Position numbers and translations under genes: made by a program. From a virus, in IMG/VR virus record IMGVR_UViG_3300025450_000015, positions 89,701 to 153,700 of that record: a stretch of 64,000 nucleotides of DNA. One strand, 5' to 3'. Numbering within the stretch: the first letter of the stretch is position 1; the number at the start of each line of letters is the position of its first letter. Positions 2 to 17,358 of this stretch are shown here, piece after piece. Below the pieces are notes generated by a model. It had not been told where the DNA came from. It worked only from the letters and a program-made list of their open reading frames with translations, and searched no databases.

Positions 2-3000
2 TCTGCATCTTATGTAAGTGGCGGAGTTGTAAGTGGCCAAGCTACTGGATTACCAGCAGGCGATGTAGGAAGCACAACCGTAGTTAATCAAATTAACACA
101 AGTGTTAGTTTAATTAATGATATGATTTATAACGGTCTTCCAAAGACTCCTGCAATCACTATCCCACAATTAACTGGATACAATACAAGTTATCTAGTAG
201 GATTTGGATACGGTATAACACAGATTCAAAATAACTATTTGTTTATCAAAGCAGAAATTGCCGCATATCTAAATACATATTATAGTAGCGTGTGGACAAC
301 ATTTGGCGGTACAAACCAAACAGAAACATTACGTGATATCGGTTTCGTATTAGATGGCCTACAGTACGATATGACTTATGGTTGTAATAATCAAAGTATT
401 ATTAATGGTAGCTCTTATTACAGTTTACAAATTCCACAAATCTTAGCATCATACAATGCCGCAACTGTTGGAGCACTACAACGTTTACAAGCAATTATCA
501 GTCAGATAGTTACAGGTACAAGTGTAACAGCAACAAGCGGTAACTCTGTAACGCAGTCAACTGGCGGTTCAGCAGGTTCAGCCGCAGCCGCAAGTTTTGC
601 CGCAGGCCGCGTTGGTGATGTAATTTACTGGTTACAAAATGCTACAAGTAATGCAACTACATTAACACTAGTCGGTAGTGTGAGTGGTACAACTTTAACT
701 GTTACTTCAGGAACAGGTAATGGAATTTATATTGGTTCTATGTTAACTGGTACAGGTGTTGTGGCAGGTACATATATTGTTAATCAATTAACAAGTTCTG
801 CAAGTGCAACAGCGGCTACAACATTAGCCAGCGGAGGATCAGCTGGTACTAATACATTTGTGGTTTCAAGTGCAACAGGTATTGCGGCAGGACAATTAAT
901 TACAGGTACTAACCTTCCAGCTGGATCTTATGTTAGCTCATCATATATTAGCGGAACAAGTATTACCGTAGTTAATGCGTTTGGTGCTCCACAAAACTTT
1001 ACGTCAACTGGCGGTACAGGTGCATACTTATTCTATCCAGCTAACGGTGCAGGTACTTATACGTTGAGTACTAGTGGCAATACTGGTACAACATTTACAG
1101 CATTGTCAACATTCACACCAGTAACAAGCGGTGCGTATGCCTTAGTAACCAATCAATACTTACAAACAGCATATAATAATTTAATTGCAAGACAAACCGA
1201 AATTGCAAGCGATGCTCAAGTTTGGGTTCAAAAATATTATCAAGCATATCCAATCAGTCAATCATTAACTCAACGCGATGCTGGTTATATTGCATTGGCA
1301 TTAGCTTGGGATGTTTTATTTGGTACTAACTTTAATAGTATTGCATGCGGTCGTGCATTTAATCGTTTAAACGCAAGTGCGTTGGCATTAGTGGCAAATA
1401 CAAACCAAGAATTGAATGCAACAACCGGTGCAATAACATTTATTGGATTTAAAGCAAAACAAATTGCAAGTGCAGGTTCGACAGTTCAAGCACAAACATT
1501 GATTGATGATATCGTAACTAAGATCAATGGACAAGTAGCGTTTAATACTGTTGGTTCAGCAATTCTTGCAGGTACACAGACTATTGCCTATGGTACAGCA
1601 GACGTAATTACTGTAACAACATCGGGCGGTACAGCTACATTCTCAGTATCGTTGACTCCAGCAACTACTGGACAAACTATCACATACATTACTGCTGGTG
1701 GTTTAGCAACATTTAGTAGTGCTCAAACATTAGTTAAAGGTACATCTGTTACTCTTGCGGCAGCCGCAGGCGGTATGTCAGCAGGCACATATTATGTAAC
1801 AACTGGTGTAAACAACAGTTTTACTGTAAGTTTATCTAGCAGTTATGCAAATGCAGTGGCGGGAACACCTGGTTCATTTACAGGTGGTACAGTTACTGGA
1901 GCAGTTGGCGTAGTAACTATTGGTACATACTATAATACTATCGCATCTGTAACAGTAACATCTGGTGGTAACTGGAACAACACAAGTTTATACAGTGCCG
2001 CACAAGCAACAACAACTACAAGTTCAGGACAAGGTTTAACATTGTCATTAGGATTTGTATCAAGTAGTTATTCAACTACAGTAGCTGGTGTACAAACATC
2101 TAGCAATATTGTAACACTTGGAAGTACAGCAGGTATGCCAACTAACATGCCAATTACATTCTCAGGTTTACCAGCTTTAGGTTCTGTAACAGCAACAGCT
2201 ACTACAACAACCAGCAATTTAATTACAGTTGCAACTACAACAGGCTTATCAGTTGGACAGCAAGTGTACTTCACAGGTACAGTATTTGGTAATATTGTTC
2301 CAAGCCAGTTATACTATATTGCAAGTATCCCAACACCTGGAACTAACGGTACAATTACTGTTAGTTTAACATTTGGTGGCGGTAATGTGGCATTGATATC
2401 AGCAACTGGTACAATGACAATGGCATTCAATAACGCAGGCGGACTATGGAATAATACTACATACTGGATTAATTCATTGCAATCTGCCGCAACATTAAGC
2501 ACATTGGCAATTACTAGTACAACAGGTGTATTCAGTTGTGCAACAAGTTCAGTAACATTAACAGTAGGACAGCCAGTTGTTATTACTGGTACGTTCTCAG
2601 CTGGTAGTATCACTGGTTATACTAGTGGTGCAACATATTATATTATTGGTAATCCAACATCAACAGCTTTCCAATTGTCAGCAACATTAGGCGGAAGTGC
2701 TGTAACATCAACAACATCAGGTGGAACAATTACTGGTATTACTGTAACAGTTCCTGCCGCAACATTAACATTGACCAACAGCTTTAAGAGTGGTACAGCA
2801 TACACAATTACTAATACAGTAACTGGTATGTCAGCTACAACCACTGCTGGAGCAACAGTGACATGGCCATATTTAAATAATCCAATGATTAATGGTTCAT
2901 TAACTTACAATGATAACGTTCTAACAATTCAAGGCACAGAAATTCTTCGTGCTAACATTCCATTCCTGGCCGCAGAAGCATCTGCTTATACAGTAGCAAG

Positions 3001-6000
3001 TTACGGCGGTACAGTATCCAGTATAACATCTGGTAGTGTTGTTAATACAAGTGGCGCACATAATTTATTAGTAAATGACCCAGTAGTGTTTACTGGTACT
3101 GTTGGTTCAAGCAATATTGTTGCTGGTACTACTTATTATGTTTTAACTGTGCCAAGCTCAACAACATTTACTATCAGTGCAACTCAATATGGCACAGGTA
3201 CACAAACAACATTTACATTAGCAACAGGTTCGTTAGGAAGTTTAACTGTAGGCTACTACTATAACTATGCTAAGTGTGTACGCGATACAACAAACTTTAT
3301 CAATGCGTTGATTTATGATATTAATTATACAGGTAACTGGAAATCAATGCGTGCCGCAGAACTTTATGTTAACGCGGTGGCAGGATCTACAACACAAAAC
3401 TTCTATCTAGTAAGAAATGCATGTGGTATTCGTAATCAAACTATGAACGGATTGACTGGTGTTTTAAGTACAGCAAATGCTTATGGAACACGTCGACCAA
3501 CAGCAGGTGCGTATGCAAGTTTAGATCCAGGCTTTGGACCAAACGATCAAAATGCATGGGTCTATGCACGTTCAACATTCGTACAAAATTGTACAATGTT
3601 CGGTTACGCTTGCGTTGGCGCCAAAGTTGACGGTGCATTGCATGCCGGTGGATACAAATCAATGGTTGCAAACGACTATACTTGTGTTATCGGCGATGGT
3701 ATCGGTTGGTGGACAACTGGAACAGGTTCATTATCAGAACTTGTTTCAGTGTTTAACTACTACAGCTACGCTGGATACATGAGTGAATTAGGAGGACGCA
3801 TTCGTGCTACTAACGGTAACAGTTCATATGGTACATACGGTGTAGTTGCCGAAGGTGTTGACACATTTGAAACTCCAATTTACGGTACTGTAAATAACAG
3901 AAGTTACGGACCTCAAGTTACTAACGTGGTTACAGATAGTACAACACAAATTTTACGTTTAGAATACGAAAATGCAGGTACAAACTACACCAATGCTATA
4001 CCAACAATTAGTGGATCAGGTTATAACATTCTTTCTTTTGCAGATGAGTTCCGTGATGCTGGTGTATTTGAATCACGTTTAATTGACTTAAACAATGGTT
4101 TAGGTGTTGGCGGTTCAAGTTATGTAAGTTCTGTTAACGTAGGCCAAGGCGGTGCAGTAGGTTATATTACTATTGCGGCAGCCGACGTAGCATTGACTGG
4201 TTCATATAACGGAATGAAAGTACAAATTACTGCTGGTACAGGTGTTGGACAATATGCGTCAATACTAACTTATACTAACGGTAGTAAAATTGCACAAATT
4301 ATTCGTACAACATTTGCAACCTTAACTGTTACCAGTTCAAGTACTACTGCATTAACTGTGGCAAGTACTGCAACATTATATGTTGGTATGCCAATTTACT
4401 TGAGTACAACCGCTACTAATATGAATTTGACTGCATATCAAGTTTATTATGTACAGGCTATTTCAAGTACAACTCAGTTTACACTAGCATTAACATCAGG
4501 CGGTTCTGCAATTACTGGTTTAACAGCAACTAGTGGACAAACAGTCAGCTTATATGCCGCTGGTTGGGATCATGTTGTACCAGGTACTCCTATAGTTAAC
4601 ACATTAGATTTAACTACAGCATATATTATTGAACCTTATGTTTCATTCACAGGTCCAGGTTATGCCGCAACAGCAAGAACATTACCAGCTACAGCAATCT
4701 GGTCAAGTATTACATACGGTGCTGGAAATTATGTAGCAATTGCCAATGGTAGTACATCGACTGCAATTAGCACTAACGGTAAAACATGGACTCCAGGTGG
4801 TGCATTAACAGCTTCTGCATTTACAAACGTTGTTTACGGTGGAGGTCAAAGTGCTGCCGCAACAGTAACACTAGGTGGATTTGGCGGATCTGGTGCTCAG
4901 TTGACAGCAGTGATTGGTACTGGAACAAGTTTAGGACAAGTAGTTGGAGTCAACGTAATTAACGGCGGTTACAACTATAATACTGCTCCATCATTATTGT
5001 TTACAGGTGGTGGCGGTACCGGTGCCCAAGGAACAGCAGTTGTTCTTAACGGAGTAATTCAATCAGTTATTATTACAGTTAATGGTTCTGGATATACTTC
5101 AGCACCGACTGTAACAGTTGTAACTAGTGCTATTACTGCGATTACTCCTATCACTTGGGGTAAAAATTATTTCAATAGCGGAAACGTTAGCGTAACAATC
5201 AGTGCTCCATTTAGTGGAACTGTTTGGAGTGGAAGTTCGAGTGCAACAAGTGGCTCATACTATTACTATTATAGTGGTGCAACTCAAGCTACAAACTATT
5301 ACCTAGCAACATCGAGCGGAACATTTTCATCAACTGCTCCAACGTTTACAACAGGTACAGGATCTGCAGGAACATATGGTGTGTCATTGACATTCGTAGG
5401 TACTGCCGCAACTGCAACTCCAACATTGACAGATTACGGTGTCAGCAGTTACACAATTACTAACATTGGTTACGGTTATACTGCAACTCCTACTATTACA
5501 ATATTAGATACTAGTGCTAAATTTGTTGCAATTTCTACAACAACTACAGCAACAGCTTATAGTACAGTAGCTAATTTAGGATCATCTTGGACTTCTGGTA
5601 ACGCACTTCCATCCGCTGGATTTAACAGTTTAACTTATGGTAACGGAATTTATGTTGCAGTTGGTTACACTGGAACAACATCTAATGCCAGTGCTATTAT
5701 TACATCTAGTCCAGACGGTGTTACATGGACTGGCAGAACAGCTCCAAGCGGTGCAACACAAGCGTTTACATCTGTGGCATTTGGCTGGACTGGACCAGGA
5801 TCTAGTGCAACAACTACAGGTATGTTTGTAGCTATCGCAACTAACAGTACATCAACAGCTTACAGTACTAACGGTTTAACATGGACTACTGGTGGTGCAT
5901 TACCGTCAGTTGCTAACTGGTCTAGCGTAACTTATGGTAACGGACGTTTTGTTGCAGTAGCCGCAGGTAGCAATATTGTTGCATACAGCAACAACGGTGG

Positions 6001-9000
6001 TGTAACTTGGTACTCAAGTGTAGCAAATAACGGTACATACTTACCATTAGCACAAAACTGGGGAATCTCATACGGAGAAGGACAGTTCTTTGCAACAGCA
6101 ACAGGACCAACTCCTACAATGACAGCTACTACTTCAAGTGGTAACTTGATTACATTAAGCAGTACAGCCGGTTTGAACGTAGGAAATACTATTGTTCCAA
6201 CAGCAGTGACTGAAACTACAGTGGCTAGTCAGACAATTAATGCAACAGCAATTGGATTGTCAACATCGTTTATTTCTAACGGTATTGCAGGCAACGCAGG
6301 TACAACATTAACTGCACCAGTTGGTTTAGGTCCGTTTGCACTAGGTATGTATTTGACTGGTTCAAATGTGACATCAGGAACTTACATTACTGGTAGCAAT
6401 ACATTTAATTCAACATCGTCAACGATTGCAGGATCTATATTGACCATTGGCGGTACAGTTACTGGTACTGGTACAACCAGTGCTTATAGTGTACAACCTG
6501 GAATGGCATTAACTGGCGCACAATTTAACACTACAAGTTCATACATTTGGAACACGTACTATCCAAGTGGTGTACAAACTGGTGTATTTGTACCAGCAGG
6601 TACAACTACTGGTGTAATTACAACAGGTAGTCAGTTGAGCGGTACAAATATAACTACTGGTGCTACTTATATTGTTTCAAATCCAACTACTTCAGGTAGC
6701 ACAATTACTGGAACAGCATCTCCAAGCACAGTAGTTACATTCAACGGTAGTGTTTCTATAGTTAACGGACAAGGTATTTTAACTGTGTCTTCAACACCAA
6801 GCGGTGTTGGTATTCAACCAGGTTATATTCTAAGTGGTACAGGTGTTACAGCTGGCACAACTATTGTTGCACCATACGGTTCATCAACAACTCCAACTAG
6901 CTCAACCGGTCAGTGGATTGTCAGCGTAGCAACAGTAGTTAGTTCAACTGCATTGACAGGCACACCATATGTACTTACAACAACTGGTACTATCAACAAT
7001 AATACATTAATACCAGGTATGGTATTGGCTAGTACAGGCGGTACTGGTACAATTACCGCTGGTACATATATTACTGGACAAATCAGTACTACAAGTAGTG
7101 CGGTAGGTACAGGTACAGGAGTAAGCGGAACAATTGGTACTACTACACTAGTAATATCTGGTTCATCGACTGGATTCGCTGTAGGACAATTAATTACTGG
7201 CGGTAGTTTGTTCTATAACACTTATGTAGTTGCTGTTTCAGTTGCAACCAACACAACAATTACATTAAGTCAGCCATTATATGCAACAATCGGTGGCGGA
7301 ACATACAACGGTTATATTCCTGGTACTGCTGGACAATACTTTATTAGCACTACTAGTTTAGTAACCAGTGTTACTGTAACCGGTAATGCATGGGTAGCTA
7401 ACACTGGCTCATTAGTTCCATCTACAACAATAACAGGCGGATTGACTGCTTATATTGCATATCAAAATACAAGCTCTGCAAGTGCAGTAGCAAGTCCAAG
7501 TTGGGCATCTGGTGGTACTATTGGTGCAAGTTCTTTTGTTGTTAATACTGGAACAGGTATCGTAGCAGGCCAATTAATTATTGGTACAGGCATCCCATCA
7601 GGAACAGTAGTAGCAAGTTCATATGTTCCTGGTAGTACAACAGTTCCATTAGCCGTGGGAGTCGCAGGAGGCGCGGCGGCAACTATTGCTGGGTCAAATG
7701 CTACTGGTACTTATAACTTCTATACAGCAGGCGGAACTGGTACATACACATTGAATACTAGTGCATTAACTATTTCAAGTGCTCAGACAATTGGCGGACA
7801 AAGCTGGACAATTACTCCAAGTCAAACAGCGGCAGCTGGTGCAATCACTGGTACACAAAATACAATTACAGTTGGAAACACAGCCGGTATGTCAGTGGGC
7901 GAACCAATAGTGTTTACGAGTAATATTGTTAGCACAACATTGACTACAACAGCCGCTACTGGTAACTTGTTAACAGTTGGTACAACTGTTGGTATGGCGG
8001 TAGGTGCTCCAGTCGTGTTTACAGCAGTGACCCAAACTGGTAATATTACTTCTACATCTAGTACTGGTAACACAATTACATTGAACTCAACTACTGGTTT
8101 AGTACAAGGTGAAACTATTGTGTTCACAGCAGTTAGTCAAACAACTACATTAACTGCTACAACTAACGGATCATTTACATTATCAAGTTCTAGTATTACT
8201 AACAGTATATTAACTGTTGGTACTTTGAGTGCAGGTACAATCACTCCAGGAGCTGTTATTTCAGGTGGTAGTATTCCTGCTGGAACATATATTATATCAA
8301 ATATATCTGGTAGTGGTAACGGTAGTACTTGGAACGTAAGTACAAGTTCAGGATTTACACAAACTAGTACAAGTATTACAGGTACATTAAACATTATCAC
8401 TGTTAACTCTAACAGCGGTATGTTAATTGGTGAAACATTTACAGTTGCTACTAACGTAGGTAACTTGATTTCAGGTAACACATATTATATTACTAAAACT
8501 ATTAGTACTAACCAGCTTGCTGTAGGTACTGTGTATGGTGCCACAAGTGATTTGACTTTAGTAACAACTACTGGTCAAAGTGTTAGCGTAACAGCTGGTG
8601 CGACATTAGGCGGCGGTAATTTAACAGCTAGTACTACATTCTATATCACTAGTGTAGCAGGCAGTAATATTACAATTAGTACAGTATACAATGGTTCATC
8701 GGTAACTATTGCTAACGGTACAGGTGTATGGACATTTGTAGCAGGTGCCGCTTTTGGTAGTATTACAAGCGGTACAACATACTACGTTACAAGCATTCCA
8801 ACTCCGGGTGTAAACGGTACAATCACTGTAAGTACAACTTATGGCGGTTCTAACTTAACTGTAACAAACGGAAATGGATCATGGTCAGTAACTGAAGGTG
8901 CAACATTTGGTGGATTAACATCCGGCTCGACATATTTCATTACTGAAATTGTTGGAAGTACACTAATATCAGTAAGTACAATTTATGGTGGAACCAATGC

Positions 9001-10897
9001 GGTAGTTACTAACGCTGGCGGATCTTGGACTGCACAAGCAGGTTCATTATTTGGTAACTTGATTTCAGGTAATACATACTATATTGCTAGTATTGCAGGC
9101 AATCAGATTACTGTAAGTGCAAGTAGTACTTTATCTCCAGTAATTACATTAGTTAATGACACAGGTGCATGGACAAGTACAATTGGTACAAACATCGCGG
9201 CAACAAGTTGGGACGGTATCAACTGGACACAGCAAACATTGCCAACATACGCAAGTTGGATCACTCCATCATTTGGTAATCCATTAGTTACAACAACTGG
9301 TTACACACCACTATGGGTAACCGCAAGTAACCAATCTGGTACAGTAGCGGCAAGTATTCATACCGGTGCAACACCGTTGGCACGTACAAAAGTAGCTAGT
9401 GGTGCTTTAACTGAAATACGTATGATTGAACCAGGCAGTGGATTTGCTAAAGGTGTTGTTACTGGAACTACGTATGTTGCTGGTACAACAGTTACCGTAA
9501 CAGCCGTATCTGGAAATTCAATTACAATCGGTGCAACCAATTTAACAATTGGCCAACCAATTACATTTGCTACTGGGTTTGGTAACGTAGTTGCAAACAC
9601 AACTTATTATGTACAAGTAACAAGTTCAGGTACAACACTAACTATCAGTTCAACTTATTATGGTAGTCCATTTAATGCAGGTACTGCAAGTAGCATATCA
9701 GTAGCTGGTACAGTTGGACCATTGAATTTAATTACTGTAGATCAAACAGAAAACATGTATAATCTACAACCAATTGAATTCAATACTGTAAGCTCTGGCG
9801 GATTAAGCACACAAACAACTTACTATGTAATTGGATCAACAATTCAATCTACTACATTCCAAGTTGCAACTTCATCTGCATTGGCAACAATTGGTACTAG
9901 TGTTACATTAACAACAAGTACTCCAACTGGTATGCAATATACAACAGGACCAACATTAACTATTACCGATCCTAACCAAGTTAACAAAGCACCAACTCGT
10001 GTACGTACAGGTGATGGTGTGTTAGGTAACCCAAGTTTCCCATGTCGTGGTGCTGGAAATGCAACAGCAACAGCAAGTATTACTGGCGATGGATATGCTG
10101 ATATCTACCAGAATACAGCATTTATTAACGTTGCTAATTTATATGCATTACCTGCCGCAGGTGCTAACGTACAGTTCAGCAGTATTTCTAACGCATGGTA
10201 CAAACTAGTTGCTACAAGTAATCAATTAGGACAAGCAGGTAACTATACTGCTACATTCCAAGTAAGTCCAAGTCTAACAACTTATCTTGCTCCACCGAAC
10301 GGTGCATTGATTACTACAAGATTGAAATACAGTCAAACACGTTTAACTGGACATGACTTCTTGTATGTTGGCTCAGGTAACCAAACACAAACTAACTATC
10401 CAAACGTTACTGATGCAAATGCAATTCAGGCTAACCAAACATATCCAAATATTGGTGGTCGCGTATTCTTTACATCAACTGACCAAGACGGTAACTTTAA
10501 CGTTGGTAACTTGTTTGGAGTTCAACAAGCGACTGGTACAGCTACATTGAATGCCAACGCATTTAACTTAGCTGGATTACAGAGTTTGACACTAGGTTCA
10601 GTAAGTTTAGGTGTAAATAGTGCAACGATTACGCAATTTAGTACAGATCCGTACTTTACTGCTAATAGTGACAATATTTTACCAACACAAAAAGCTATTA
10701 AATCTTACATCACAGCCCAAATTGGTGGCGGATCAAGTAGTTTGAACGTAAATACACTAACGGCAGGACAGATATACATAGCTGGTAATACTATTAGTAA
10801 CCTAAATGGTAATCAAATTTATGTTAGCAGTAAGATGCTGTTCACAGGCGGAATTGACGGTGCTCCTGTAGCTACCGTATTCTTCTTATCAAGATAA
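2..10897 (+). CDS. Giant virion structural / tail fibre protein (5'-truncated, >3600 aa)
   Basis: The frame of ORF 122..10897 stays open back to position 2, so the gene starts upstream of the window. It is Thr/Gly/Ser-rich with repeated 'G..I.F...FGNL..G.TYY(I/V)' modules and propeller-like 'WSSVTYGNGRFVAVA / S.DG.TWT' repeats. The C-terminal GHDFL...GGRVFFTSTDQDGNF region resembles large structural proteins of aquatic T4-like phages. Confidence 0.8.
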   Translation, partial: SASYVSGGVVSGQATGLPAGDVGSTTVVNQINTSVSLINDMIYNGLPKTPAITIPQLTGYNTSYLVGFGYGITQIQNNYLFIKAEIAAYLNTYYSSVWTTFGGTNQTETLRDIGFVLDGLQYDMTYGCNNQSIINGSSYYSLQIPQILASYNAATVGALQRLQAIISQIVTGTSVTATSGNSVTQSTGGSAGSAAAASFAAGRVGDVIYWLQNATSNATTLTLVGSVSGTTLTVTSGTGNGIYIGSMLTGTGVVAGTYIVNQLTSSASATAATTLASGGSAGTNTFVVSSATGIAAGQLITGTNLPAGSYVSSSYISGTSITVVNAFGAPQNFTSTGGTGAYLFYPANGAGTYTLSTSGNTGTTFTALSTFTPVTSGAYALVTNQYLQTAYNNLIARQTEIASDAQVWVQKYYQAYPISQSLTQRDAGYIALALAWDVLFGTNFNSIACGRAFNRLNASALALVANTNQELNATTGAITFIGFKAKQIASAGSTVQAQTLIDDIVTKINGQVAFNTVGSAILAGTQTIAYGTADVITVTTSGGTATFSVSLTPATTGQTITYITAGGLATFSSAQTLVKGTSVTLAAAAGGMSAGTYYVTTGVNNSFTVSLSSSYANAVAGTPGSFTGGTVTGAVGVVTIGTYYNTIASVTVTSGGNWNNTSLYSAAQATTTTSSGQGLTLSLGFVSSSYSTTVAGVQTSSNIVTLGSTAGMPTNMPITFSGLPALGSVTATATTTTSNLITVATTTGLSVGQQVYFTGTVFGNIVPSQLYYIASIPTPGTNGTITVSLTFGGGNVALISATGTMTMAFNNAGGLWNNTTYWINSLQSAATLSTLAITSTTGVFSCATSSVTLTVGQPVVITGTFSAGSITGYTSGATYYIIGNPTSTAFQLSATLGGSAVTSTTSGGTITGITVTVPAATLTLTNSFKSGTAYTITNTVTGMSATTTAGATVTWPYLNNPMINGSLTYNDNVLTIQGTEILRANIPFLAAEASAYTVASYGGTVSSITSGSVVNTSGAHNLLVNDPVVFTGTVGSSNIVAGTTYYVLTVPSSTTFTISATQYGTGTQTTFTLATGSLGSLTVGYYYNYAKCVRDTTNFINALIYDINYTGNWKSMRAAELYVNAVAGSTTQNFYLVRNACGIRNQTMNGLTGVLSTANAYGTRRPTAGAYASLDPGFGPNDQNAWVYARSTFVQNCTMFGYACVGAKVDGALHAGGYKSMVANDYTCVIGDGIGWWTTGTGSLSELVSVFNYYSYAGYMSELGGRIRATNGNSSYGTYGVVAEGVDTFETPIYGTVNNRSYGPQVTNVVTDSTTQILRLEYENAGTNYTNAIPTISGSGYNILSFADEFRDAGVFESRLIDLNNGLGVGGSSYVSSVNVGQGGAVGYITIAAADVALTGSYNGMKVQITAGTGVGQYASILTYTNGSKIAQIIRTTFATLTVTSSSTTALTVASTATLYVGMPIYLSTTATNMNLTAYQVYYVQAISSTTQFTLALTSGGSAITGLTATSGQTVSLYAAGWDHVVPGTPIVNTLDLTTAYIIEPYVSFTGPGYAATARTLPATAIWSSITYGAGNYVAIANGSTSTAISTNGKTWTPGGALTASAFTNVVYGGGQSAAATVTLGGFGGSGAQLTAVIGTGTSLGQVVGVNVINGGYNYNTAPSLLFTGGGGTGAQGTAVVLNGVIQSVIITVNGSGYTSAPTVTVVTSAITAITPITWGKNYFNSGNVSVTISAPFSGTVWSGSSSATSGSYYYYYSGATQATNYYLATSSGTFSSTAPTFTTGTGSAGTYGVSLTFVGTAATATPTLTDYGVSSYTITNIGYGYTATPTITILDTSAKFVAISTTTTATAYSTVANLGSSWTSGNALPSAGFNSLTYGNGIYVAVGYTGTTSNASAIITSSPDGVTWTGRTAPSGATQAFTSVAFGWTGPGSSATTTGMFVAIATNSTSTAYSTNGLTWTTGGALPSVANWSSVTYGNGRFVAVAAGSNIVAYSNNGGVTWYSSVANNGTYLPLAQNWGISYGEGQFFATATGPTPTMTATTSSGNLITLSSTAGLNVGNTIVPTAVTETTVASQTINATAIGLSTSFISNGIAGNAGTTLTAPVGLGPFALGMYLTGSNVTSGTYITGSNTFNSTSSTIAGSILTIGGTVTGTGTTSAYSVQPGMALTGAQFNTTSSYIWNTYYPSGVQTGVFVPAGTTTGVITTGSQLSGTNITTGATYIVSNPTTSGSTITGTASPSTVVTFNGSVSIVNGQGILTVSSTPSGVGIQPGYILSGTGVTAGTTIVAPYGSSTTPTSSTGQWIVSVATVVSSTALTGTPYVLTTTGTINNNTLIPGMVLASTGGTGTITAGTYITGQISTTSSAVGTGTGVSGTIGTTTLVISGSSTGFAVGQLITGGSLFYNTYVVAVSVATNTTITLSQPLYATIGGGTYNGYIPGTAGQYFISTTSLVTSVTVTGNAWVANTGSLVPSTTITGGLTAYIAYQNTSSASAVASPSWASGGTIGASSFVVNTGTGIVAGQLIIGTGIPSGTVVASSYVPGSTTVPLAVGVAGGAAATIAGSNATGTYNFYTAGGTGTYTLNTSALTISSAQTIGGQSWTITPSQTAAAGAITGTQNTITVGNTAGMSVGEPIVFTSNIVSTTLTTTAATGNLLTVGTTVGMAVGAPVVFTAVTQTGNITSTSSTGNTITLNSTTGLVQGETIVFTAVSQTTTLTATTNGSFTLSSSSITNSILTVGTLSAGTITPGAVISGGSIPAGTYIISNISGSGNGSTWNVSTSSGFTQTSTSITGTLNIITVNSNSGMLIGETFTVATNVGNLISGNTYYITKTISTNQLAVGTVYGATSDLTLVTTTGQSVSVTAGATLGGGNLTASTTFYITSVAGSNITISTVYNGSSVTIANGTGVWTFVAGAAFGSITSGTTYYVTSIPTPGVNGTITVSTTYGGSNLTVTNGNGSWSVTEGATFGGLTSGSTYFITEIVGSTLISVSTIYGGTNAVVTNAGGSWTAQAGSLFGNLISGNTYYIASIAGNQITVSASSTLSPVITLVNDTGAWTSTIGTNIAATSWDGINWTQQTLPTYASWITPSFGNPLVTTTGYTPLWVTASNQSGTVAASIHTGATPLARTKVASGALTEIRMIEPGSGFAKGVVTGTTYVAGTTVTVTAVSGNSITIGATNLTIGQPITFATGFGNVVANTTYYVQVTSSGTTLTISSTYYGSPFNAGTASSISVAGTVGPLNLITVDQTENMYNLQPIEFNTVSSGGLSTQTTYYVIGSTIQSTTFQVATSSALATIGTSVTLTTSTPTGMQYTTGPTLTITDPNQVNKAPTRVRTGDGVLGNPSFPCRGAGNATATASITGDGYADIYQNTAFINVANLYALPAAGANVQFSSISNAWYKLVATSNQLGQAGNYTATFQVSPSLTTYLAPPNGALITTRLKYSQTRLTGHDFLYVGSGNQTQTNYPNVTDANAIQANQTYPNIGGRVFFTSTDQDGNFNVGNLFGVQQATGTATLNANAFNLAGLQSLTLGSVSLGVNSATITQFSTDPYFTANSDNILPTQKAIKSYITAQIGGGSSSLNVNTLTAGQIYIAGNTISNLNGNQIYVSSKMLFTGGIDGAPVATVFFLSR

Positions 10898-10917: not shown

Positions 10918-11256
10918 ATGGCAGGATCAGGAAATAAAGCAACGACACAATTGAACGCAGGTACACAGTCTACTTATTCGTTAATCTATACAGTACCAAC
11001 CGGTTACTACGGTGTTTATAACATTTCATTTACAAACACTACAGCTTCTGCGGCAACTATTAGATTATATATAGGTGCAAGTACTGCGGCATCTCAGGTT
11101 GCCAGTGAAGCATATGAATACTTAACAACAGTAGTTGGTTATGGTGTGTTTGAACGTACAGGAATTGTAATGGCAGCTGGTGCAAACATTGTTGCTAGCT
11201 CAAGCGTTGCTGGTGTAAACGTTAACGTTTACGGAATTGAAACATCGACATCATAA
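10918..11256 (+). CDS. Small virion/tail-associated protein
   Basis: 112-aa beta-rich ORF with a GGAG RBS and an 'IYTVP' motif, lying between two fibre genes. Confidence 0.6.
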   Translation: MAGSGNKATTQLNAGTQSTYSLIYTVPTGYYGVYNISFTNTTASAATIRLYIGASTAASQVASEAYEYLTTVVGYGVFERTGIVMAAGANIVASSSVAGVNVNVYGIETSTS

Positions 11257-11278: not shown

Positions 11279-13249
11279 ATGGCACGTTATAATACATCGC
11301 TGGCAACAGAAATTGTTTCCGGAGCACAAACTCTGTTAACACCTGCACAAGGTGGTTACACAGAATTTCAAGGATCTGCACCGTACACGGTGGTTATCCC
11401 AGGACCAACATTATTTTTAGGACAGTCGCAAAGTTATTTTAACAACACTAGTGGTGTTGTTACACTTTCTGCTCCTAGCGGATATATTGCTGGTAGTCCT
11501 AGTTCTCCGGTGTTTAACGGACCAGGTGGTTCTAGTACAAACTTATTGGCCATGCCAGCAGGATCTAGTTGTATTATTGGATCTGATGGTACTAACTATA
11601 GTATAATTACATTCCCAGGCGGTAATCAATTTGGTATTAACGGAACTTTTTCAGCTGATTTGATTAGTACCAATACTGGTACCACCAATATCTACAATAC
11701 AAATACTCAGACAGTTAACTTTGCAGGCGCGGCAACTAGTATCAATATTGGTTCTAGCACTGGTACAACTACTATTAACAATCAATTGTTAGTAAAAGGC
11801 GGAACAGTTGTTCTTAACTCTAGTTCAGTACGTACAGAAGATAAAAATATTGAAATTGGATATGTTAATCCAGTTACTTATGGTGGCGGTACTGTTACAA
11901 CTATCGGTGGTGCGTTAGGCGGTAGTACAACATTTACAAGTATTACTGGTACAAAAGTAACTGGTGCAGGTACATACAGTGGTGTTGGACAATTTGCTAC
12001 AAGTGGTAGCGGATCGGGTGCAACTTTTAACATCACTACAACTGGGTCAGGTACAACTTATACTGGTGTAACTACAATTACATTGGTTAATCCAGGAAGT
12101 AACTATGCAATCAATGATACAATTACTATTGGTGGTAACTTACTTGGTGGTACTAATAGTCCTAACAACTTAACATTCACTGTAAGCAACGTTAACTACA
12201 GTCCTTGGATTGCAACTATTACCGGTATGCCCAACACTACCAACTTGGTAAACGGTCAAGCTGTTAGTGCAACTAACGGTACAGGTAGTTTAGGCGGCGG
12301 CGGTACAAGTTATGTAATAAGCAACATTGTAAGTGGAACTAGTATTCAGGTAACAGTAACAGGCGGCACAACTCCTGTAGCTGGTACAATTACAGCTATT
12401 ACTCCAGGTAGTGCTGATACATTTGCCAACGGCGGCGGCATATTATTATATGGAACTAGTAATCACACATTACAATGGGCAAGCAGTACATTAGGTCCAA
12501 CAAGCGGTGGCGGTAACCCAGCTTGGGTTAGTTCAGAAGGGTTGTATATCAATACTTCTAATACATTTGGTATTCAAAGTGGTAGCAACGTTAACTTTAA
12601 CTTATTGACCAACGGTCAAGCTACTGGTACTGTTAACATTGCAACCAACGCTGGTACAGGTAACTTGTTTACTGGAGCAAGTTCAGCAGTTAACATTGGT
12701 GCTAGCGGTGGTACTGCTACAATCAGCAACACTAACTTTACAGTTGGACAGTCTGGTGGTACAGTTACTTTTAACGGTATTACAACTTTCACAATGAATA
12801 GCGTAACAGCGTTTAACTTAACTGGCGGCGGTACAATGAATGCTGGTAGTACATATGGTTATTTTAGTTCGCTAGGCGTTGGTACTAACACTAACGGTGG
12901 TGGTGGTACAATTTATGCGGCAAACAACATTGTTGCTTACTACTCAGATGACAGATTAAAGACACGTTTGGGCAAAATTGAAGATGCTCTTGCTAAGTTA
13001 GAAACATTAAATGGTTTTTACTTTGAAGCTAACCAAACTGCTCAGGATTTGGGATATACTGTTCAACGTGAAGTTGGAGTTTCTGCTCAAGAAGTTAATG
13101 CAATCCTGCCAGAAATTATCAAACCAGCTCCAATCGACGCTAAGTACATGACAGTTCAGTACGAAAAGTTATTACCATTAGTGATTGAAGCAGTTAAGGA
13201 ATTGTCAAGCCAAGTTAAAGAATTAAAAGCACAGATTAACAAGGAATAA
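11279..13249 (+). CDS. Tail fibre protein with C-terminal peptidase S74 intramolecular chaperone
   Basis: Gly/Thr-rich body. The C-terminal YYSDDRLK...GVSAQEV...YEKLLPLVIEAVKEL coiled coil is the S74 auto-cleaving chaperone signature. Confidence 0.85.
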   Translation: MARYNTSLATEIVSGAQTLLTPAQGGYTEFQGSAPYTVVIPGPTLFLGQSQSYFNNTSGVVTLSAPSGYIAGSPSSPVFNGPGGSSTNLLAMPAGSSCIIGSDGTNYSIITFPGGNQFGINGTFSADLISTNTGTTNIYNTNTQTVNFAGAATSINIGSSTGTTTINNQLLVKGGTVVLNSSSVRTEDKNIEIGYVNPVTYGGGTVTTIGGALGGSTTFTSITGTKVTGAGTYSGVGQFATSGSGSGATFNITTTGSGTTYTGVTTITLVNPGSNYAINDTITIGGNLLGGTNSPNNLTFTVSNVNYSPWIATITGMPNTTNLVNGQAVSATNGTGSLGGGGTSYVISNIVSGTSIQVTVTGGTTPVAGTITAITPGSADTFANGGGILLYGTSNHTLQWASSTLGPTSGGGNPAWVSSEGLYINTSNTFGIQSGSNVNFNLLTNGQATGTVNIATNAGTGNLFTGASSAVNIGASGGTATISNTNFTVGQSGGTVTFNGITTFTMNSVTAFNLTGGGTMNAGSTYGYFSSLGVGTNTNGGGGTIYAANNIVAYYSDDRLKTRLGKIEDALAKLETLNGFYFEANQTAQDLGYTVQREVGVSAQEVNAILPEIIKPAPIDAKYMTVQYEKLLPLVIEAVKELSSQVKELKAQINKE

Positions 13250-13252
13250 ACG

Positions 13253-13654
13253 ATGACAACTCCTTCAAGTCCTATTTATATTAGTCAAATTGACGGCGAA
13301 ATTGGACTGCCTAACAGCAGTCCATACAGCAATTTGAGTAATCTTAATGGATATGTAATTCCAGGACAACGTGATAGTTACCCAACTATGAACGAAATGC
13401 GTAACAGAGCATACTATCGTTCAAATAACAAGGGTAATTGCAACAACGGAAATTGTCCAAATAATTGTAATTGTGGTAACATTTGCTGTACAAACTGTTA
13501 TAATTGTAATAACATCAATTGCACAAATTGCGATGGTCAAAACTGGTTACAAAACAACTGTAATTGCAACTGCACTTACAACTGTAACATTAATACCAAC
13601 GTATATTATAACTGTAATTGTAACTGTAATTGTAACTGTAACTGTAACTGCTAA
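13253..13654 (+). CDS. Asn-Cys-rich protein; putative radical SAM substrate (RiPP-like precursor / tail-tip protein)
   Basis: AAGGA RBS. Residues 1-62 contain no Cys. Residues 63-133 contain 21 Cys, 19 of them preceded by Asn, and end in (NC)7. The gene lies immediately upstream of a rSAM/SPASM gene. Confidence 0.8.
   Translation: MTTPSSPIYISQIDGEIGLPNSSPYSNLSNLNGYVIPGQRDSYPTMNEMRNRAYYRSNNKGNCNNGNCPNNCNCGNICCTNCYNCNNINCTNCDGQNWLQNNCNCNCTYNCNINTNVYYNCNCNCNCNCNCNC
13610..13651 (+). repeat. (AAY TGY)7 hexamer tandem repeat encoding (Asn-Cys)7
   Basis: aac tgt aat tgt aac tgt aat tgt aac tgt aac tgt aac tgc. Variation occurs only at synonymous third positions. Confidence 0.9.
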
Positions 13655-13672
13655 TATACCACAAGGAATCTT

Positions 13673-15139
13673 ATGATTTTTGAAATACTGACAGAAAAGT
13701 TTGGATCAAACCCACCTGATCTAAGAACGTTCTTCTATGACAACGAAAAAAATGTCTTAAGCGATGAAACAGGATTCGTCTATGAGTATCCCGATGCTTA
13801 TGCAAATAATTTTGAAAATCGAGTACCATACAAACCATTTGATAAAGATCGTCCTTTAATTAAATCTCGCAGTACTAATCACGTAAAAATTCAACTAGGA
13901 TTAAGTTGTAATTATAGTTGTGATTATTGCAGTCAAAAATTTGTGGAACGCCCACGTGAAACTAATGCTAAAGACATTGAAAATTTTATGGAAATGTTTA
14001 AGACTTTAGAGTTTAACGAAGAAGACGGTTTACGAGTTGAATTTTGGGGAGGTGAACCTTTAGTTTACTGGAAGACATTAAAACCCCTGGCCGAAGCAGT
14101 AGCAGAATTTTTTAAAGATTGGAGAAAGAAACCAGTTTTTAGTATTATTACTAATGGTAGTATTTTAACAGAAGAAATCTGTGCTTGGCTATACAGTATG
14201 GAATTCCATGTAGCTATCAGTCATGACGGGCCAGGACAACATGTACGCGGACCAGATCCATTTGCAGATCCTAAGAAACGTGAAATTATTTTAGATTTAT
14301 ACCAGATTTTGCGTCCTTTAAATCGCATCAGTTTTAACTCAATGTTAAACAGACAAAATCTTAGTCGTAAAGCTATATTTGATTATTTTATTAATTTTAC
14401 AAATGATCCCAATGTTAGTTTAGGTGAAGGTACCTTTGTAGATGCATATGATGCCGATGGCCTACAACACAGTTTACAAACTAAACAAGATCATTTCGAA
14501 TTTAGAAAAATCGCGTTCGGAGAAATTTACGGATCTAACGGTGAAATCGGCTTTGGCAACATATTACAAAAAGTTGATAATTTCACAGAATCAGTATTGA
14601 CCCATCAGCAAGCAGACTATTTAGGTCAAAAATGCGGCATGGATGACGAAAGAACCGTTGCATTTGATTTAAACGGCAATGTAATTACTTGCCAAAATGT
14701 CAGTGCTATCGAAATTAACAAAAACGGAGAACCTCACTTAGGTGGTAAGATTACTGAGATCGAGGACGTAAAAATTACTACTAGTACACACTGGAGTAAT
14801 CGTGCAGAATGTCCAAGTTGTCCAGTGTTGCATATTTGTAAAGGTGCATGTATGTTCCTTTCAGATGAATTCTGGACTACAAGTTGCAATAACGCCTATA
14901 GCGATAACGTACCATTGTTTGCCGCAAGTATTGAAAAAATAACAGGTGGTTATGTTCCTTACCATATTAAGGGCAAAGGATTACCATTAGAGCGCCAAGA
15001 TATCTGGGGCGGTGTATTCAAACACGAAGAAGAAAAGAAAAAAATAATACCTATTAAGATTGTCAGTGAAAAAGTTGCTGTAATCGACAATGTCGAAGTT
15101 TACGGTAAGAGTTCCTTGATAAATACTGAACAGGAATAA
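13673..15139 (+). CDS. Radical SAM/SPASM-domain protein (putative peptide/protein maturase)
   Basis: CNYSCDYC (CX3CX2C, C79/83/86), FWGGEP, ITNG and ISHDG motifs. The C-terminal CX13GX4C...CX2CX5CX3CX11C seven-Cys pattern is SPASM-type. Confidence 0.92.
   Translation: MIFEILTEKFGSNPPDLRTFFYDNEKNVLSDETGFVYEYPDAYANNFENRVPYKPFDKDRPLIKSRSTNHVKIQLGLSCNYSCDYCSQKFVERPRETNAKDIENFMEMFKTLEFNEEDGLRVEFWGGEPLVYWKTLKPLAEAVAEFFKDWRKKPVFSIITNGSILTEEICAWLYSMEFHVAISHDGPGQHVRGPDPFADPKKREIILDLYQILRPLNRISFNSMLNRQNLSRKAIFDYFINFTNDPNVSLGEGTFVDAYDADGLQHSLQTKQDHFEFRKIAFGEIYGSNGEIGFGNILQKVDNFTESVLTHQQADYLGQKCGMDDERTVAFDLNGNVITCQNVSAIEINKNGEPHLGGKITEIEDVKITTSTHWSNRAECPSCPVLHICKGACMFLSDEFWTTSCNNAYSDNVPLFAASIEKITGGYVPYHIKGKGLPLERQDIWGGVFKHEEEKKKIIPIKIVSEKVAVIDNVEVYGKSSLINTEQE
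15118..15125 (+). promoter_or_regulatory. Putative T4-type late promoter (GATAAATA)
   Basis: Same TAAATA core as found upstream of the structural genes. It lies in the rSAM 3' end, upstream of ORF 15153. Confidence 0.45.
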
Positions 15140-15152
15140 GGAATAGCAGATC

Positions 15153-16148
15153 ATGAATTTAACTCAAAATTTAATACAGTTTCAACATTCGCAGTTGATA
15201 GCACTAGATATAAAATTTACTGACACTGGATTTCAGTGGACAGTATTTGATGCCTATAAAAAATCAGAATTGCAGTTGGAATGGGCTAGTTTAGCAGATA
15301 ATACCGTTACTGCTAGAAAAGTAGCCGGAGTTAGATATCCAAGCCCTGCTGACGAATTTGCATGGGAAACAGAAACACATAGAGTTTATAGTCAAACTTC
15401 AGGAGTCTATCCTGGTGTAACAGCAGGAATTTCTGGAGAAATAAATTGGACAGATATTACCAACAATGAGGGATTTTCAGATCATGCTATTTTTGCAATC
15501 ACTCACCCAGCTGACCAAGTTACTGTAAGAAATTTAAATGTAAGATACGTTCAACAAACTGCTTTGAATACAAGAACAGGTATCCCATTATACAATTTAG
15601 TAGCCAATTCACAACTACATAAGAAAAATCCAGTTAGGGCAATGTCTTTGCAAAAGAATAGTCCTATGATTTTAATTTCTATTCCGTTTGCAGAAATGAA
15701 TCCATCAGATTGGAACATGATGGTTGCGTTGGGCGATAGCGATCCTGGCCTAGTAAGAATATCGTCAGGCGAACAATTCACAAATGTAATCACCGACGAG
15801 CTTGGCAGAATCGTATATACTATGCCAAAAGTTTATTTTACAAATAAGACTGCTACTGTCAGCCCAGACGGCTATGTCGATTTACCGTTTTACTTAGGAA
15901 CTCCTACCGATTTAAATCCCCCAGCAAAAACAAGCTCTGAGCATGGATTGCCTATAACGGATCACAATGCAACTATATATTTAAAAACTACGGCAGGTCA
16001 CTTGAATAAACAACAAGTACAAACAGTCAACGGTGTAGGAACTGTTCGTTTAATTGCAACACATCTTGTTCCAGGTGACACTATCACAGTAAGTTGTGGT
16101 TTTCAATATTGGTCAGGATCAGACGACTGCGTTATAACCGTACAATAA
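15153..16148 (+). CDS. Hypothetical protein in rSAM cluster, probable C-terminal Ig-like beta-sandwich
   Basis: 331-aa ORF with an AAGGA RBS. The C-terminal ...VNGVGTVRLIATHLVPGDTITVSCGF segment is a run of beta-strands. Confidence 0.6.
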   Translation: MNLTQNLIQFQHSQLIALDIKFTDTGFQWTVFDAYKKSELQLEWASLADNTVTARKVAGVRYPSPADEFAWETETHRVYSQTSGVYPGVTAGISGEINWTDITNNEGFSDHAIFAITHPADQVTVRNLNVRYVQQTALNTRTGIPLYNLVANSQLHKKNPVRAMSLQKNSPMILISIPFAEMNPSDWNMMVALGDSDPGLVRISSGEQFTNVITDELGRIVYTMPKVYFTNKTATVSPDGYVDLPFYLGTPTDLNPPAKTSSEHGLPITDHNATIYLKTTAGHLNKQQVQTVNGVGTVRLIATHLVPGDTITVSCGFQYWSGSDDCVITVQ

Positions 16149-16155
16149 GGTTTTT

Positions 16156-17358
16156 ATGAAAATAGGCATTATAGGTAGTGGTACCGCCAGCGCCGTTTCA
16201 TTACTTGCAATTTTTGATAAATTTAAATTCCATAGATGCAAACACATAGATGTGTATTGCATATACAATCCTGACATTCCTGTAACTACTGTGGGCGAAA
16301 GTACTAGCCCTATAATGCCTAGTTTACTTTATCATGCTATTGATTTTTCTGTTACTGAAGAATTAAAAGAGTTCGATGGTACCCTTCGCTGGGGTACTCG
16401 TTACTACTGGGAAGATATTAATGATAAAAATTTCCTAGTAAGGCATGGACATACAGGATTGCATGTCAACAGTGAAAAATTTAGCGGATTTGTTATCAAC
16501 AAACTTGATAAATTATACGATAATTTTTTTCAAATACACGGTAATGTCTCAGACATAACACAAGATCATACTCACGTATCGATATTAGTCGACGGAGTGC
16601 AACATAAATTTGACTATATCATCGATTGTAGAGGATCACCGTCGGCCGAAGAAATGGATAGTGGACTATACGAATTTCCAAAATTTGAAACAGTTAACTC
16701 AGTAATACTATTTCCTGACTTTAAAGAGTATAACGAAGATTTAACAAGTGCATATCCACATGACGACGGCTGGATGTTTGGAGTACCATTAACTCATCGT
16801 AAAGCCTTTGGTTATCTATATAATAAAAATATAACAACTCAGGAAGAAGCGATTGAAAAATTTTCTAAATTAAAAAATATTGATGCTAGTAAATTAAGAA
16901 AATTTAGCTGGAGACAGTATTATAAAAAAGAAGCAATGAATGGACGCATATTATCCATGGGTAACAGACTATATTTTCTTGAACCTGCACAAGCATTGCC
17001 GTTACATTTTTATATAAATTTGTCTGTAGAGTTTATTGAAACATTAATTAAAGGTACTAATTTACAAACACCGCATTTTAATAGAGGAATTAATACTTCT
17101 TATCTTAAAAGTATGGAAGATATGTTGAATTTAGTTGCACTAAACTATGTAGGTCCTTGCAAAAAAGATACGCCTTTCTGGAATACAGTCACAGCACTGG
17201 CTAAAGAACGTTTACAAACATCGGAAAGATTTCAAAAATATGTAAGATTGTGTCAGCAGACTGGAGAATACGAGCAGTATTGGGCACACAATTCAGCCTT
17301 GATGAAAGAATATATCGAAGGCTTTGATATTAAACTAGATCAACTAAGTCAAATATAG
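16156..17358 (+). CDS. Flavin-dependent tryptophan-halogenase-like oxidoreductase
   Basis: Rossmann IGIIGSGTAS, plus VGEST, IDCRG, GWMFGVPL (WxWxIP-like) and FLEPAQA (FxEPLES-like) motifs. Confidence 0.8.
   Translation: MKIGIIGSGTASAVSLLAIFDKFKFHRCKHIDVYCIYNPDIPVTTVGESTSPIMPSLLYHAIDFSVTEELKEFDGTLRWGTRYYWEDINDKNFLVRHGHTGLHVNSEKFSGFVINKLDKLYDNFFQIHGNVSDITQDHTHVSILVDGVQHKFDYIIDCRGSPSAEEMDSGLYEFPKFETVNSVILFPDFKEYNEDLTSAYPHDDGWMFGVPLTHRKAFGYLYNKNITTQEEAIEKFSKLKNIDASKLRKFSWRQYYKKEAMNGRILSMGNRLYFLEPAQALPLHFYINLSVEFIETLIKGTNLQTPHFNRGINTSYLKSMEDMLNLVALNYVGPCKKDTPFWNTVTALAKERLQTSERFQKYVRLCQQTGEYEQYWAHNSALMKEYIEGFDIKLDQLSQI

Follow-up and report, generated by a model that had tools for sequence, protein, structure and literature searches.

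The 64,000-nucleotide stretch of the IMG/VR virus record IMGVR_UViG_3300025450_000015 analyzed here (the window) contains a gene cluster, all on the + strand, that encodes in order a small protein, a tail fibre ending in a Peptidase_S74 (S74) chaperone, a Cys-rich protein of 133 amino acids (aa), a radical S-adenosylmethionine (SAM)/SPASM enzyme, a 331-aa partner protein, and a halogenase-like flavoprotein. The source record is a 102-kb IMG/VR fragment with an estimated completeness of 28%, and the phage is therefore predicted to be a jumbo phage. Based on sequence comparison, we predict that the 133-aa protein is probably a virion fibre-tip module that is modified by the adjacent enzyme. The radical SAM/SPASM gene (13673-15139) is the key to the locus; an earlier reading of this DNA from its letters and open reading frames (ORFs) alone (the original prediction) described the Cys-rich protein and did not name that gene.

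The 656-aa fibre (11279-13249, +) has two predicted parts. Residues 1-555 (11279-12943), the shaft and tip that would remain after self-cleavage, match PHROG families of long-tail-fibre distal subunits and of tail fibres (E 1e-17 to 1e-28), and the tip reads ...GGGGTIYAANNIVAYY. Residues 556-656 (12944-13249) form a Peptidase_S74 intramolecular chaperone (PF13884 at residues 556-613, E 2.7e-8; score 34.4 bits, cut-off 22). The predicted self-cut falls between Y555 and S556, with ...NNIVAYY before the cut and SDDRLKTRLG after it. The SDDRLK motif is common to all S74 fibres found adjoining members of the Cys-rich family. The Cys-rich gene starts 3 nucleotides past the fibre stop codon and the S74 match is above the Pfam cut-off, so the earlier observation that this gene directly follows an S74 fibre holds.

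The Cys-rich ORF (13253-13654, +) has an AAGGA ribosome-binding site and its product starts MTTPSSPIYISQIDGEIG. The 133-aa protein contains 21 Cys, none of them in residues 1-62, and its C-terminal end is (NC)7. It can be divided into a Cys-free N-terminal domain (N-domain; residues 1-60, 13253-13432), which is a candidate docking domain, a conserved Asn-Cys-rich domain (residues 61-119, 13433-13609), and the (NC)7 tail with the stop codon (13610-13654), the likely substrate tract of the enzyme. The codons of the (NC)7 tract are mixed (AAC/AAT and TGT/TGC). Compared with a relative that is 86% identical (L006), the gene has 53 synonymous-only codon differences and 17 amino acid changes, and we consider it a real gene because synonymous changes outnumber amino acid changes.

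The family comprises at least 107 clusters (90 of them at E<=1e-10), which a profile of residues 1 to ~120 retrieved from 1.84 billion representative proteins; the matches start nearly always at residue 1. The family is found only in viruses, and its neighbors in the ESM Atlas are viral. Family members share an architecture of N-domain, conserved NC-rich domain, and variable (xC)n tail, which ranges among relatives from (NC)3 up to ~25 xC units. The NC-rich domain follows the pattern GNCNNGNC...NCNCGNIQCxNC...INCxNCD...LQxNCNCxxTYNC...YNCNC. Invariant positions in alignments of 7 and 8 sequences include C63, N65, G66, N67, C68, C72, G75, C79, N81, C82, N89, C90, N92, C93, D94, Q100, N104, C105, Y109, N110, C111, and Y119. 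Megablast and tblastn searches of cultured phages gave no match with the locus, the full-length Cys-rich protein, or residues 1-60 as query, within the limits set by low-complexity filtering. Two candidate members, P0110 and P0112, were rejected as spurious profile hits. The first of these is a 1,038-aa metagenomic protein of ~15 near-identical tandem repeats of ~66 residues that matches the N-domain profile by chance.

The pairing of the Cys-rich gene with the enzyme is close to obligate. We collected 80 viral loci from IMG/VR, which reduce to 63 non-redundant loci and to 27 enzyme lineages at 75% identity. A radical SAM/SPASM gene lies within three genes of the Cys-rich gene in 61 of the 63, usually directly before or after it. 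Since this pairing recurs across unrelated phages, we propose an enzyme-substrate relation. S74 fibre genes, where present, cluster at position -1 (13 of 19 S74 neighbors); at the level of lineages, an S74 fibre lies up to three genes upstream in nine of the 27. One further lineage (L014) has a Phage_tail_fib gene upstream, in a baseplate module, and in two lineages S74 is fused to the Cys-rich protein itself.

The 488-aa enzyme (13673-15139) matches Pfam Radical_SAM (E 2.3e-8) and the SPASM model TIGR04085 (30.6 bits against a cut-off of 27). Its radical SAM motif, CNYSCDYC (C79x3C83x2C86), is invariant in six relatives, as is a complete seven-Cys SPASM pattern (C321, G335, C340, C380, C383, C389, C393, C405). 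The best NCBIfam matches are PapB (E 1.2e-20) and then QhpD (E 2.7e-19), both thioether-forming enzymes that act on Cys-Asp/Glu; TIGR04463 follows at E 4.4e-11. CteB (5wgg) is one of two sequence matches in PDB.

The same enzyme family adjoins tail fibres in bacterial genomes. We scanned one genome per prokaryotic species and kept the best 80 enzyme loci, 72 of which have a recognizable enzyme gene. Most come from freshwater Burkholderiales and are apparently prophages. A co-oriented gene with an (xC)>=4 run, located between six genes upstream and one gene downstream of the enzyme, is present in 45 of the 72 loci, and in 42 of these 45 no more than 7 residues separate the run from the C-terminus (e.g. 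...RTQYNFNCNCNCNCDCYC). Such ORFs are scarce overall (49 of 1,042 ORFs in the bacterial enzyme loci). Five of the (xC)n proteins were scanned; three match PHROG tail-fibre families (E 5e-89, 1e-48, and 6e-7), and collagen repeats occur in two of them. The L137 protein matched nothing. Several of the bacterial-locus fibres resemble, by eye, the N-terminus of the Achromobacter phage JWF fibre described below. A profile of six members of the 331-aa partner family detected relatives in 43 of the 72 loci; their usual place is between the (NC)n fibre gene and the enzyme gene, often together with a 2-oxoglutarate (2OG)-Fe(II) oxygenase. The Cys-domain profile detected nothing in the C-termini of the bacterial (NC)n fibres, and by eye only the repeat and short NGNC/NCNCG motifs are common to both; as judged from sequence, the bacterial fibres and the Cys-rich family have no demonstrable homologous domain. 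The cassette lies at the end of the tail module in L104, L118, L137, and other loci, before small genes that are lysis-like by position. Among the hosts are numerous Burkholderiales from freshwater (Limnohabitans, Polynucleobacter, Polaromonas, Rhodoferax), a distribution that suggests that the system is carried by widespread prophages or tail-like elements.

Two cultured phages, Achromobacter phage JWF and Ralstonia phage RSP15, encode enzymes 46% identical to the one in the window, directly downstream of fibre genes; in JWF the enzyme gene is gp030. The genes involved are annotated only as hypothetical or radical SAM proteins. The JWF fibre gp028 is a natural fusion of fibre, (NC)5, and Hint in one chain: it reads NCNCDCNCNCSC before a Hint domain (Pfam 47.5 bits), with ...KPRQNCNCDCNCNCSC on one side of the junction and FPAGTMVL on the other. 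Both ends of gp028 have counterparts in contig L091: its N-terminus is 42% identical to the S74 fibre of that contig, and its C-terminus is 40% identical to the (xC)n-Hint segment of the Cys-rich protein encoded there. The ORF048 fibre of RSP15 has ...NTNCQCGN as its C-terminal end, and ORF047 of this phage corresponds to the 331-aa partner. In both cultured phages (JWF gp028-gp030 and RSP15 ORF048-ORF045) the tract belongs to the fibre chain, whereas in the window it is carried by a separate 133-aa protein with an N-domain of its own, next to an S74-ended fibre.

Longer relatives of the Cys-rich protein carry further modules after the (xC)n tail, and these are of fibre type: S74, Hint, or a ~170-aa domain that we call domain D. 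L057 has S74 after the tail (Pfam 29.1 bits; cut-off 22), as does L058; in an S74-fused relative the junction reads ...NCNCACFW and then SDDTLK. Hint follows the tail in L073, L091, P0052, and P0062; in a Hint-bearing relative ...CDC is joined to CFPADALVTMADG. Domain D, with its hydrophobic C-terminal end, terminates Cys-rich forms of ~300 aa; it also closes a 616-aa protein that Synechococcus phage SynMITS9220M01 encodes within its fibre cluster. This protein, gene 028 (L096:5669-7519), consists of immunoglobulin-like repeats, a glycine-rich domain, and 33 Pro then 8 Arg, followed by domain D. The gene after it proved unrelated to the ~120-aa gene that follows the metagenomic domain-D forms.

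A fibre-type domain may also be inserted ahead of the Cys domain. In P0079, a glycine-rich domain of ~200 residues lies between the N-domain and the Cys domain, and its AlphaFold2 model resembles the tail-tip protein of Bxb1 (Z 14.2) and the fibre of cyanophage Pam3 (Z 14.0). The insert was found only in P0079, P0108, and P0147, and Pfam Gly_rich_2 was confirmed for P0079. A cultured-phage search with P0079 gave no match. In P0148 and P0149, the glycine-rich fibre domain is combined with a different N-terminal module.

We conclude that phages probably modify their host-binding fibre tips, because the same enzyme adjoins (NC)n-ended fibres in many phages and prophages. Likewise, fibre-type fusions and (xC)n-ended fibres next to the same enzyme argue for a fibre-tip module and against a released peptide. 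The original prediction held that the NC tract is displayed and modified, not released. This part is supported by the comparative evidence (the fusions and the prophage fibres), and its placement on the preceding fibre stays conjectural, as do the proposed role as receptor ligand and the proposed metal loading. What lies in the genomes directly is the gene order, the family membership, the enzyme pairing, the fibre-type fusions, and the C-terminal (xC)n runs beside the enzyme.

The N-domain has the consensus MTLPxSGxISxSDxxxExG...SW, conserved in 43 aligned relatives, which agrees with the N-terminal pattern that the original prediction gave for small fibre-adjacent proteins. AlphaFold2, given an alignment of 75 sequences, predicts that residues 1-60 form a small folded domain with three short helices and a strand (predicted local distance difference test, pLDDT, 74-88). 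When the model was compared exhaustively with 48,161 PDB chains, the sole match at Z>=2 was to residues 2-46 of gp38 from phage S16 (6f45_D; root-mean-square deviation 2.0 over 45 residues); the match is weak, and this predicted resemblance is a lead and not proof. Foldseek with the model of the window protein found nothing in PDB, and a BFVD search returned one family member plus weak matches to phage proteins with glycine-rich domains. A word-based search with residues 1-62 found two close relatives only. The N-domain profile gave chance-level hits only among PDB sequences. Among longer proteins, of which only 8,000 candidates were scored, it found 30 proteins, five with Hint-type Pfam domains and the others without any Pfam domain.

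Most of the enzyme-linked (NC)n fibres lack the MTLP N-domain while the N-terminal ~65 residues of the enzyme itself stay conserved, and we conclude that the N-domain is probably not a required leader. Since it is also predicted to fold, it is unlikely to be only the leader of a peptide that is made on ribosomes and modified after translation (RiPP). Both points fit an anchoring role. The suggestion that the apparent leader is a fibre-docking domain agrees with its predicted fold and its probable dispensability as a leader; no sequence link to the gp38 N-terminal family was found. Fibre-adjacent homologues of the N-terminal region were also expected; an S74 fibre lies upstream in only nine of the 27 lineages.

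The model for such docking is the S16 gp37-gp38 complex (PDB 6F45). As had been assumed, S16 gp37 carries Peptidase_S74 (E 1.4e-11) and the next gene is gp38. Both systems have an S74-ended distal fibre followed by a gene for a small protein, with a short folded N-domain in gp38 and a predicted one here. One family relative, P0079, also has a glycine-rich domain (Gly_rich_2). The window protein differs in having no sequence similarity to Gp38_N (PF21721) or GP38 (PF05268), an Asn-Cys-rich module instead of the gp38 glycine-rich sandwich, and a dedicated radical SAM enzyme, of which gp38 has none. Some Cys-rich relatives also differ in carrying their own S74, which implies trimers. Docking of the 133-aa protein on the 656-aa fibre in the manner of gp38 is possible, and by analogy we place it a little short of likely. 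The case for it consists of the gene order, the JWF fusion, and a single fold match that is weak (Z 2.4).

The proposed mechanism is as follows. The enzyme would modify the (xC)n tract at the C-terminus, perhaps along with the NC-rich domain, and the folded N-domain would anchor the modified module to the virion. The likeliest anchor here would be the tip of the upstream 656-aa fibre after S74 self-cleavage, as gp38 caps gp37 in S16, so that the modified product would sit at the distal end of the fibre. In other phages, the (NC)n tract appears to be written at the fibre C-terminus, sometimes followed by a Hint or S74 domain that would remove itself.

Our best guess for the chemistry, a tentative one, is the formation of thioether cross-links (ranthionine-type, from Cys to Asn/Asp). 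We make it because PapB and QhpD head the NCBIfam matches (although far below their cut-offs), each Cys has Asn or Asp before it, and radical SAM/SPASM enzymes are known to cross-link proteins. NxxcB joins Cys to the beta-carbon of Asn, and by analogy a linkage of this type would fit Asn-Cys repeats. Formylglycine formation or metal-thiolate assembly are possible; membership of the enzyme in the formylglycine-forming anSME family was rejected (45 against 349 bits).

Radical SAM/SPASM enzymes install thioethers in the protein substrates QhpC and CrpA (PMC13692751). In the QhpD/QhpC system of quinohaemoprotein amine dehydrogenase and the CrpC/CrpA system, as in the window, the enzyme is encoded beside a Cys-rich protein that remains a protein (a subunit), and Asp or Asn adjoins Cys in the window tract as at the Cys-Asp links of QhpC. 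They differ from the window system in that the window substrate motif is a strict C-terminal (N/D/A-C)n run in a phage tail-fibre setting, and in that the cross-link of the window system is a proposed one. Ranthipeptide and sactipeptide systems (PapB/freyrasin, CteB/SCIFF, NxxcB/NxxcA) have the same enzyme architecture. In contrast to them, the window locus is without a protease or exporter, and the substrate would be a virion-type protein, predicted to fold, or a whole tail fibre.

Several results weigh against a modified fibre-tip module docked on the preceding fibre. In 15 of the 27 lineages there is neither a recognized fibre gene upstream nor an S74 fusion, and in these lineages the pair is surrounded by DNA-metabolism genes and by genes for 2OG-Fe(II) oxygenases, Asp/Asn hydroxylases, and halogenases, a setting that looks like a biosynthetic cluster too. 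The window protein has no Pfam hit to Gp38_N or GP38, none of the 43 N-domains hits Gp38_N at E<=10, and hhalign against S16 gp38 gave a probability of 0.1 and no link; the fold match is at only Z 2.4. AlphaFold2 gives no confident model for the Cys-rich parts (pLDDT below 50). The enzyme falls outside the characterized equivalogs PapB, QhpD, CcpM, CefB, SCIFF, TIGR04463, and anSME, with scores far below the curated cut-offs (e.g. 74 against 340, 69 against 453 for QhpD, and 42 against 525 bits for TIGR04463). The N-terminus of CrpA from Methanococcus voltae was shown to serve in enzyme binding (PMC13692751), and the conserved extreme N-terminus of the Cys-rich family could, by analogy, be such a recognition sequence. 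The S74-fused relatives imply that the Cys-rich protein would itself trimerize, whereas gp38 is monomeric in the gp37-gp38 structure.

This last point bears on the alternative that survives best, which we nevertheless consider unlikely: the modified structural protein may be an independent small trimeric fibre, attached elsewhere (e.g. at the baseplate or another fibre joint). The C-terminal S74 domains of L057 and L058 imply self-trimerization, many family members adjoin no fibre gene, the N-terminal module swap in P0148/P0149 suggests interchangeable anchors, and a sequence link to Gp38_N is lacking. However, the Cys-rich gene begins 3 nucleotides after an S74 fibre here and an S74 fibre lies upstream in eight other lineages, the JWF fusion joins exactly such a fibre to an (xC)n module, and the gp38 N-terminal domain is the one PDB fold that matched the N-domain model at Z>=2.

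Far less probable is a classical RiPP precursor, in which the N-terminal 60 residues are a leader and the core is released at lysis as a bacteriocin, metallophore, or signal. The classical feature of a Cys-rich core gene beside a maturase is present: a Cys-free N-terminal part and a Cys-rich C-terminal part are encoded next to a peptide-maturase-type radical SAM/SPASM enzyme, and the conserved extreme N-terminus resembles the CrpA recognition sequence. Tailoring-type genes are also frequent in the viral loci, with 2OG-Fe(II) oxygenases in 37 loci, Asp/Asn beta-hydroxylases in 22, halogenases in 15, desaturase-like genes in 13, and a second radical SAM gene in seven. These arrays resemble the dioxygenase/halogenase arrays of cyanophages, which have been interpreted as secondary-metabolite clusters (Iyer et al. 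2010, PMC2938197). Against a released peptide stand, above all, the (xC)n C-terminal ends in 42 of 72 bacterial enzyme loci, with three of the five proteins scanned matching tail-fibre families. In addition, the supposed leader is predicted to fold as a domain, a fibre-type domain of 200 residues can separate leader from core, and S74 chaperones and Hint domains come after the core. Neither a protease nor an exporter was found by Pfam, NCBIfam, or PHROGs in 10.9-17.4 kb, which agrees with the original prediction and with the case against this alternative, although such an absence says little for a lytic phage.

The least probable alternative is that the (xC)n tract is an unmodified metal-thiolate module (metallothionein-like or T4 gp37-like) and the enzyme has another role, since CxC spacing is typical of metallothioneins, T4 gp37 has a His-x-His iron needle, and alternating Cys put all thiols on one strand face. 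What speaks against it is that unrelated phage types and apparent prophages almost always pair the tract with one enzyme family. Metal binding and cross-linking are not mutually exclusive.

The remaining genes of the cluster may take part in the same system. The 331-aa partner (15153-16148, +) is homologous to RSP15 ORF047 (BLASTP E 6e-10) and has no Pfam, NCBIfam, or PHROG match. The 400-aa flavoprotein (16156-17358, +), a possible tailoring enzyme, matches Pfam Trp_halogenase (E 1.3e-31) and phrog_2928 (E 5e-60), and relatives of the halogenase family occur in 15 of the 63 non-redundant viral loci. Aligned to RebH, the catalytic Lys is replaced by Arg (TLRWG), the Glu of FVEPLES by Gln (FLEPAQA), and WxWxIP reads WMFGVP (the second Trp is Phe); the N-terminal stretch of this alignment is weak (7.5 bits). 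Judging from these residues, it may be a monooxygenase and not a halogenase. A 112-aa protein before the fibre (10918-11256, +) has a weak PHROG tail-fibre match (phrog_11338, E 2.2e-5), and its gene keeps this place before the S74 fibre in the related contigs L003-L008 and L069. A promoter and terminator scan found no terminator-like sites between the cluster genes, and predicted sites were no more numerous than in shuffled sequence.

Upstream of the cluster, the window encodes a single 3,591-aa Ser/Thr/Gly-rich fibre-like ORF (122-10897, +), and Pfam found no match in its first 1,293 residues. Giant ORFs (1,700-2,100 aa) related to RSP15 ORF044 hold the equivalent place in other lineages, and their best Pfam match is DUF4815. 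Around the pair in other viruses, L022, L079, L081, and ~35 other viral loci encode arrays of 2OG-Fe(II) oxygenases (PF13759) together with an Asp/Asn beta-hydroxylase (PF05118) and a protein resembling fatty-acid desaturases; some of them also have a second radical SAM gene. The oxygenase/hydroxylase arrays may be tailoring enzymes for the Asn-rich substrate, or merely neighbors. On the 184-kb phage-like contig of L014, a gene of the periplasmic-binding-protein family and a class-III aminotransferase gene (L014:12635-15090) lie just downstream of the fibre/Cys-rich/enzyme cassette.

A wider reading, for which we see the chances as about even, is that in many unrelated phage types a radical SAM/SPASM enzyme and its partner, often with oxygenases, turn an (Asn-Cys)n fibre end into a cross-linked, possibly metal-binding tip, and that the tract is supplied either in the fibre chain or on a small docking protein. 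Fibre-tip adhesins are of a kind already known, and so is the cross-linking of Cys-rich proteins by radical SAM/SPASM enzymes; the setting and the breadth are unexpected. In full-text literature searches, no paper was found that describes phage fibres modified by radical SAM enzymes or virion proteins cross-linked by radical SAM chemistry. The system is directly testable because two cultured phages, JWF and RSP15, carry it.

If true, RiPP-type chemistry would be used to build the receptor-binding end of the virion and would add a new layer to the construction and diversification of such tips in phages. Tract length and the residues on either side of it show variation like that of a host-range determinant. 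Protein-level thioether formation, as in QhpC and CrpA, would extend to viruses, and part of the unexplained oxygenase/halogenase arrays of marine phages would have a purpose.

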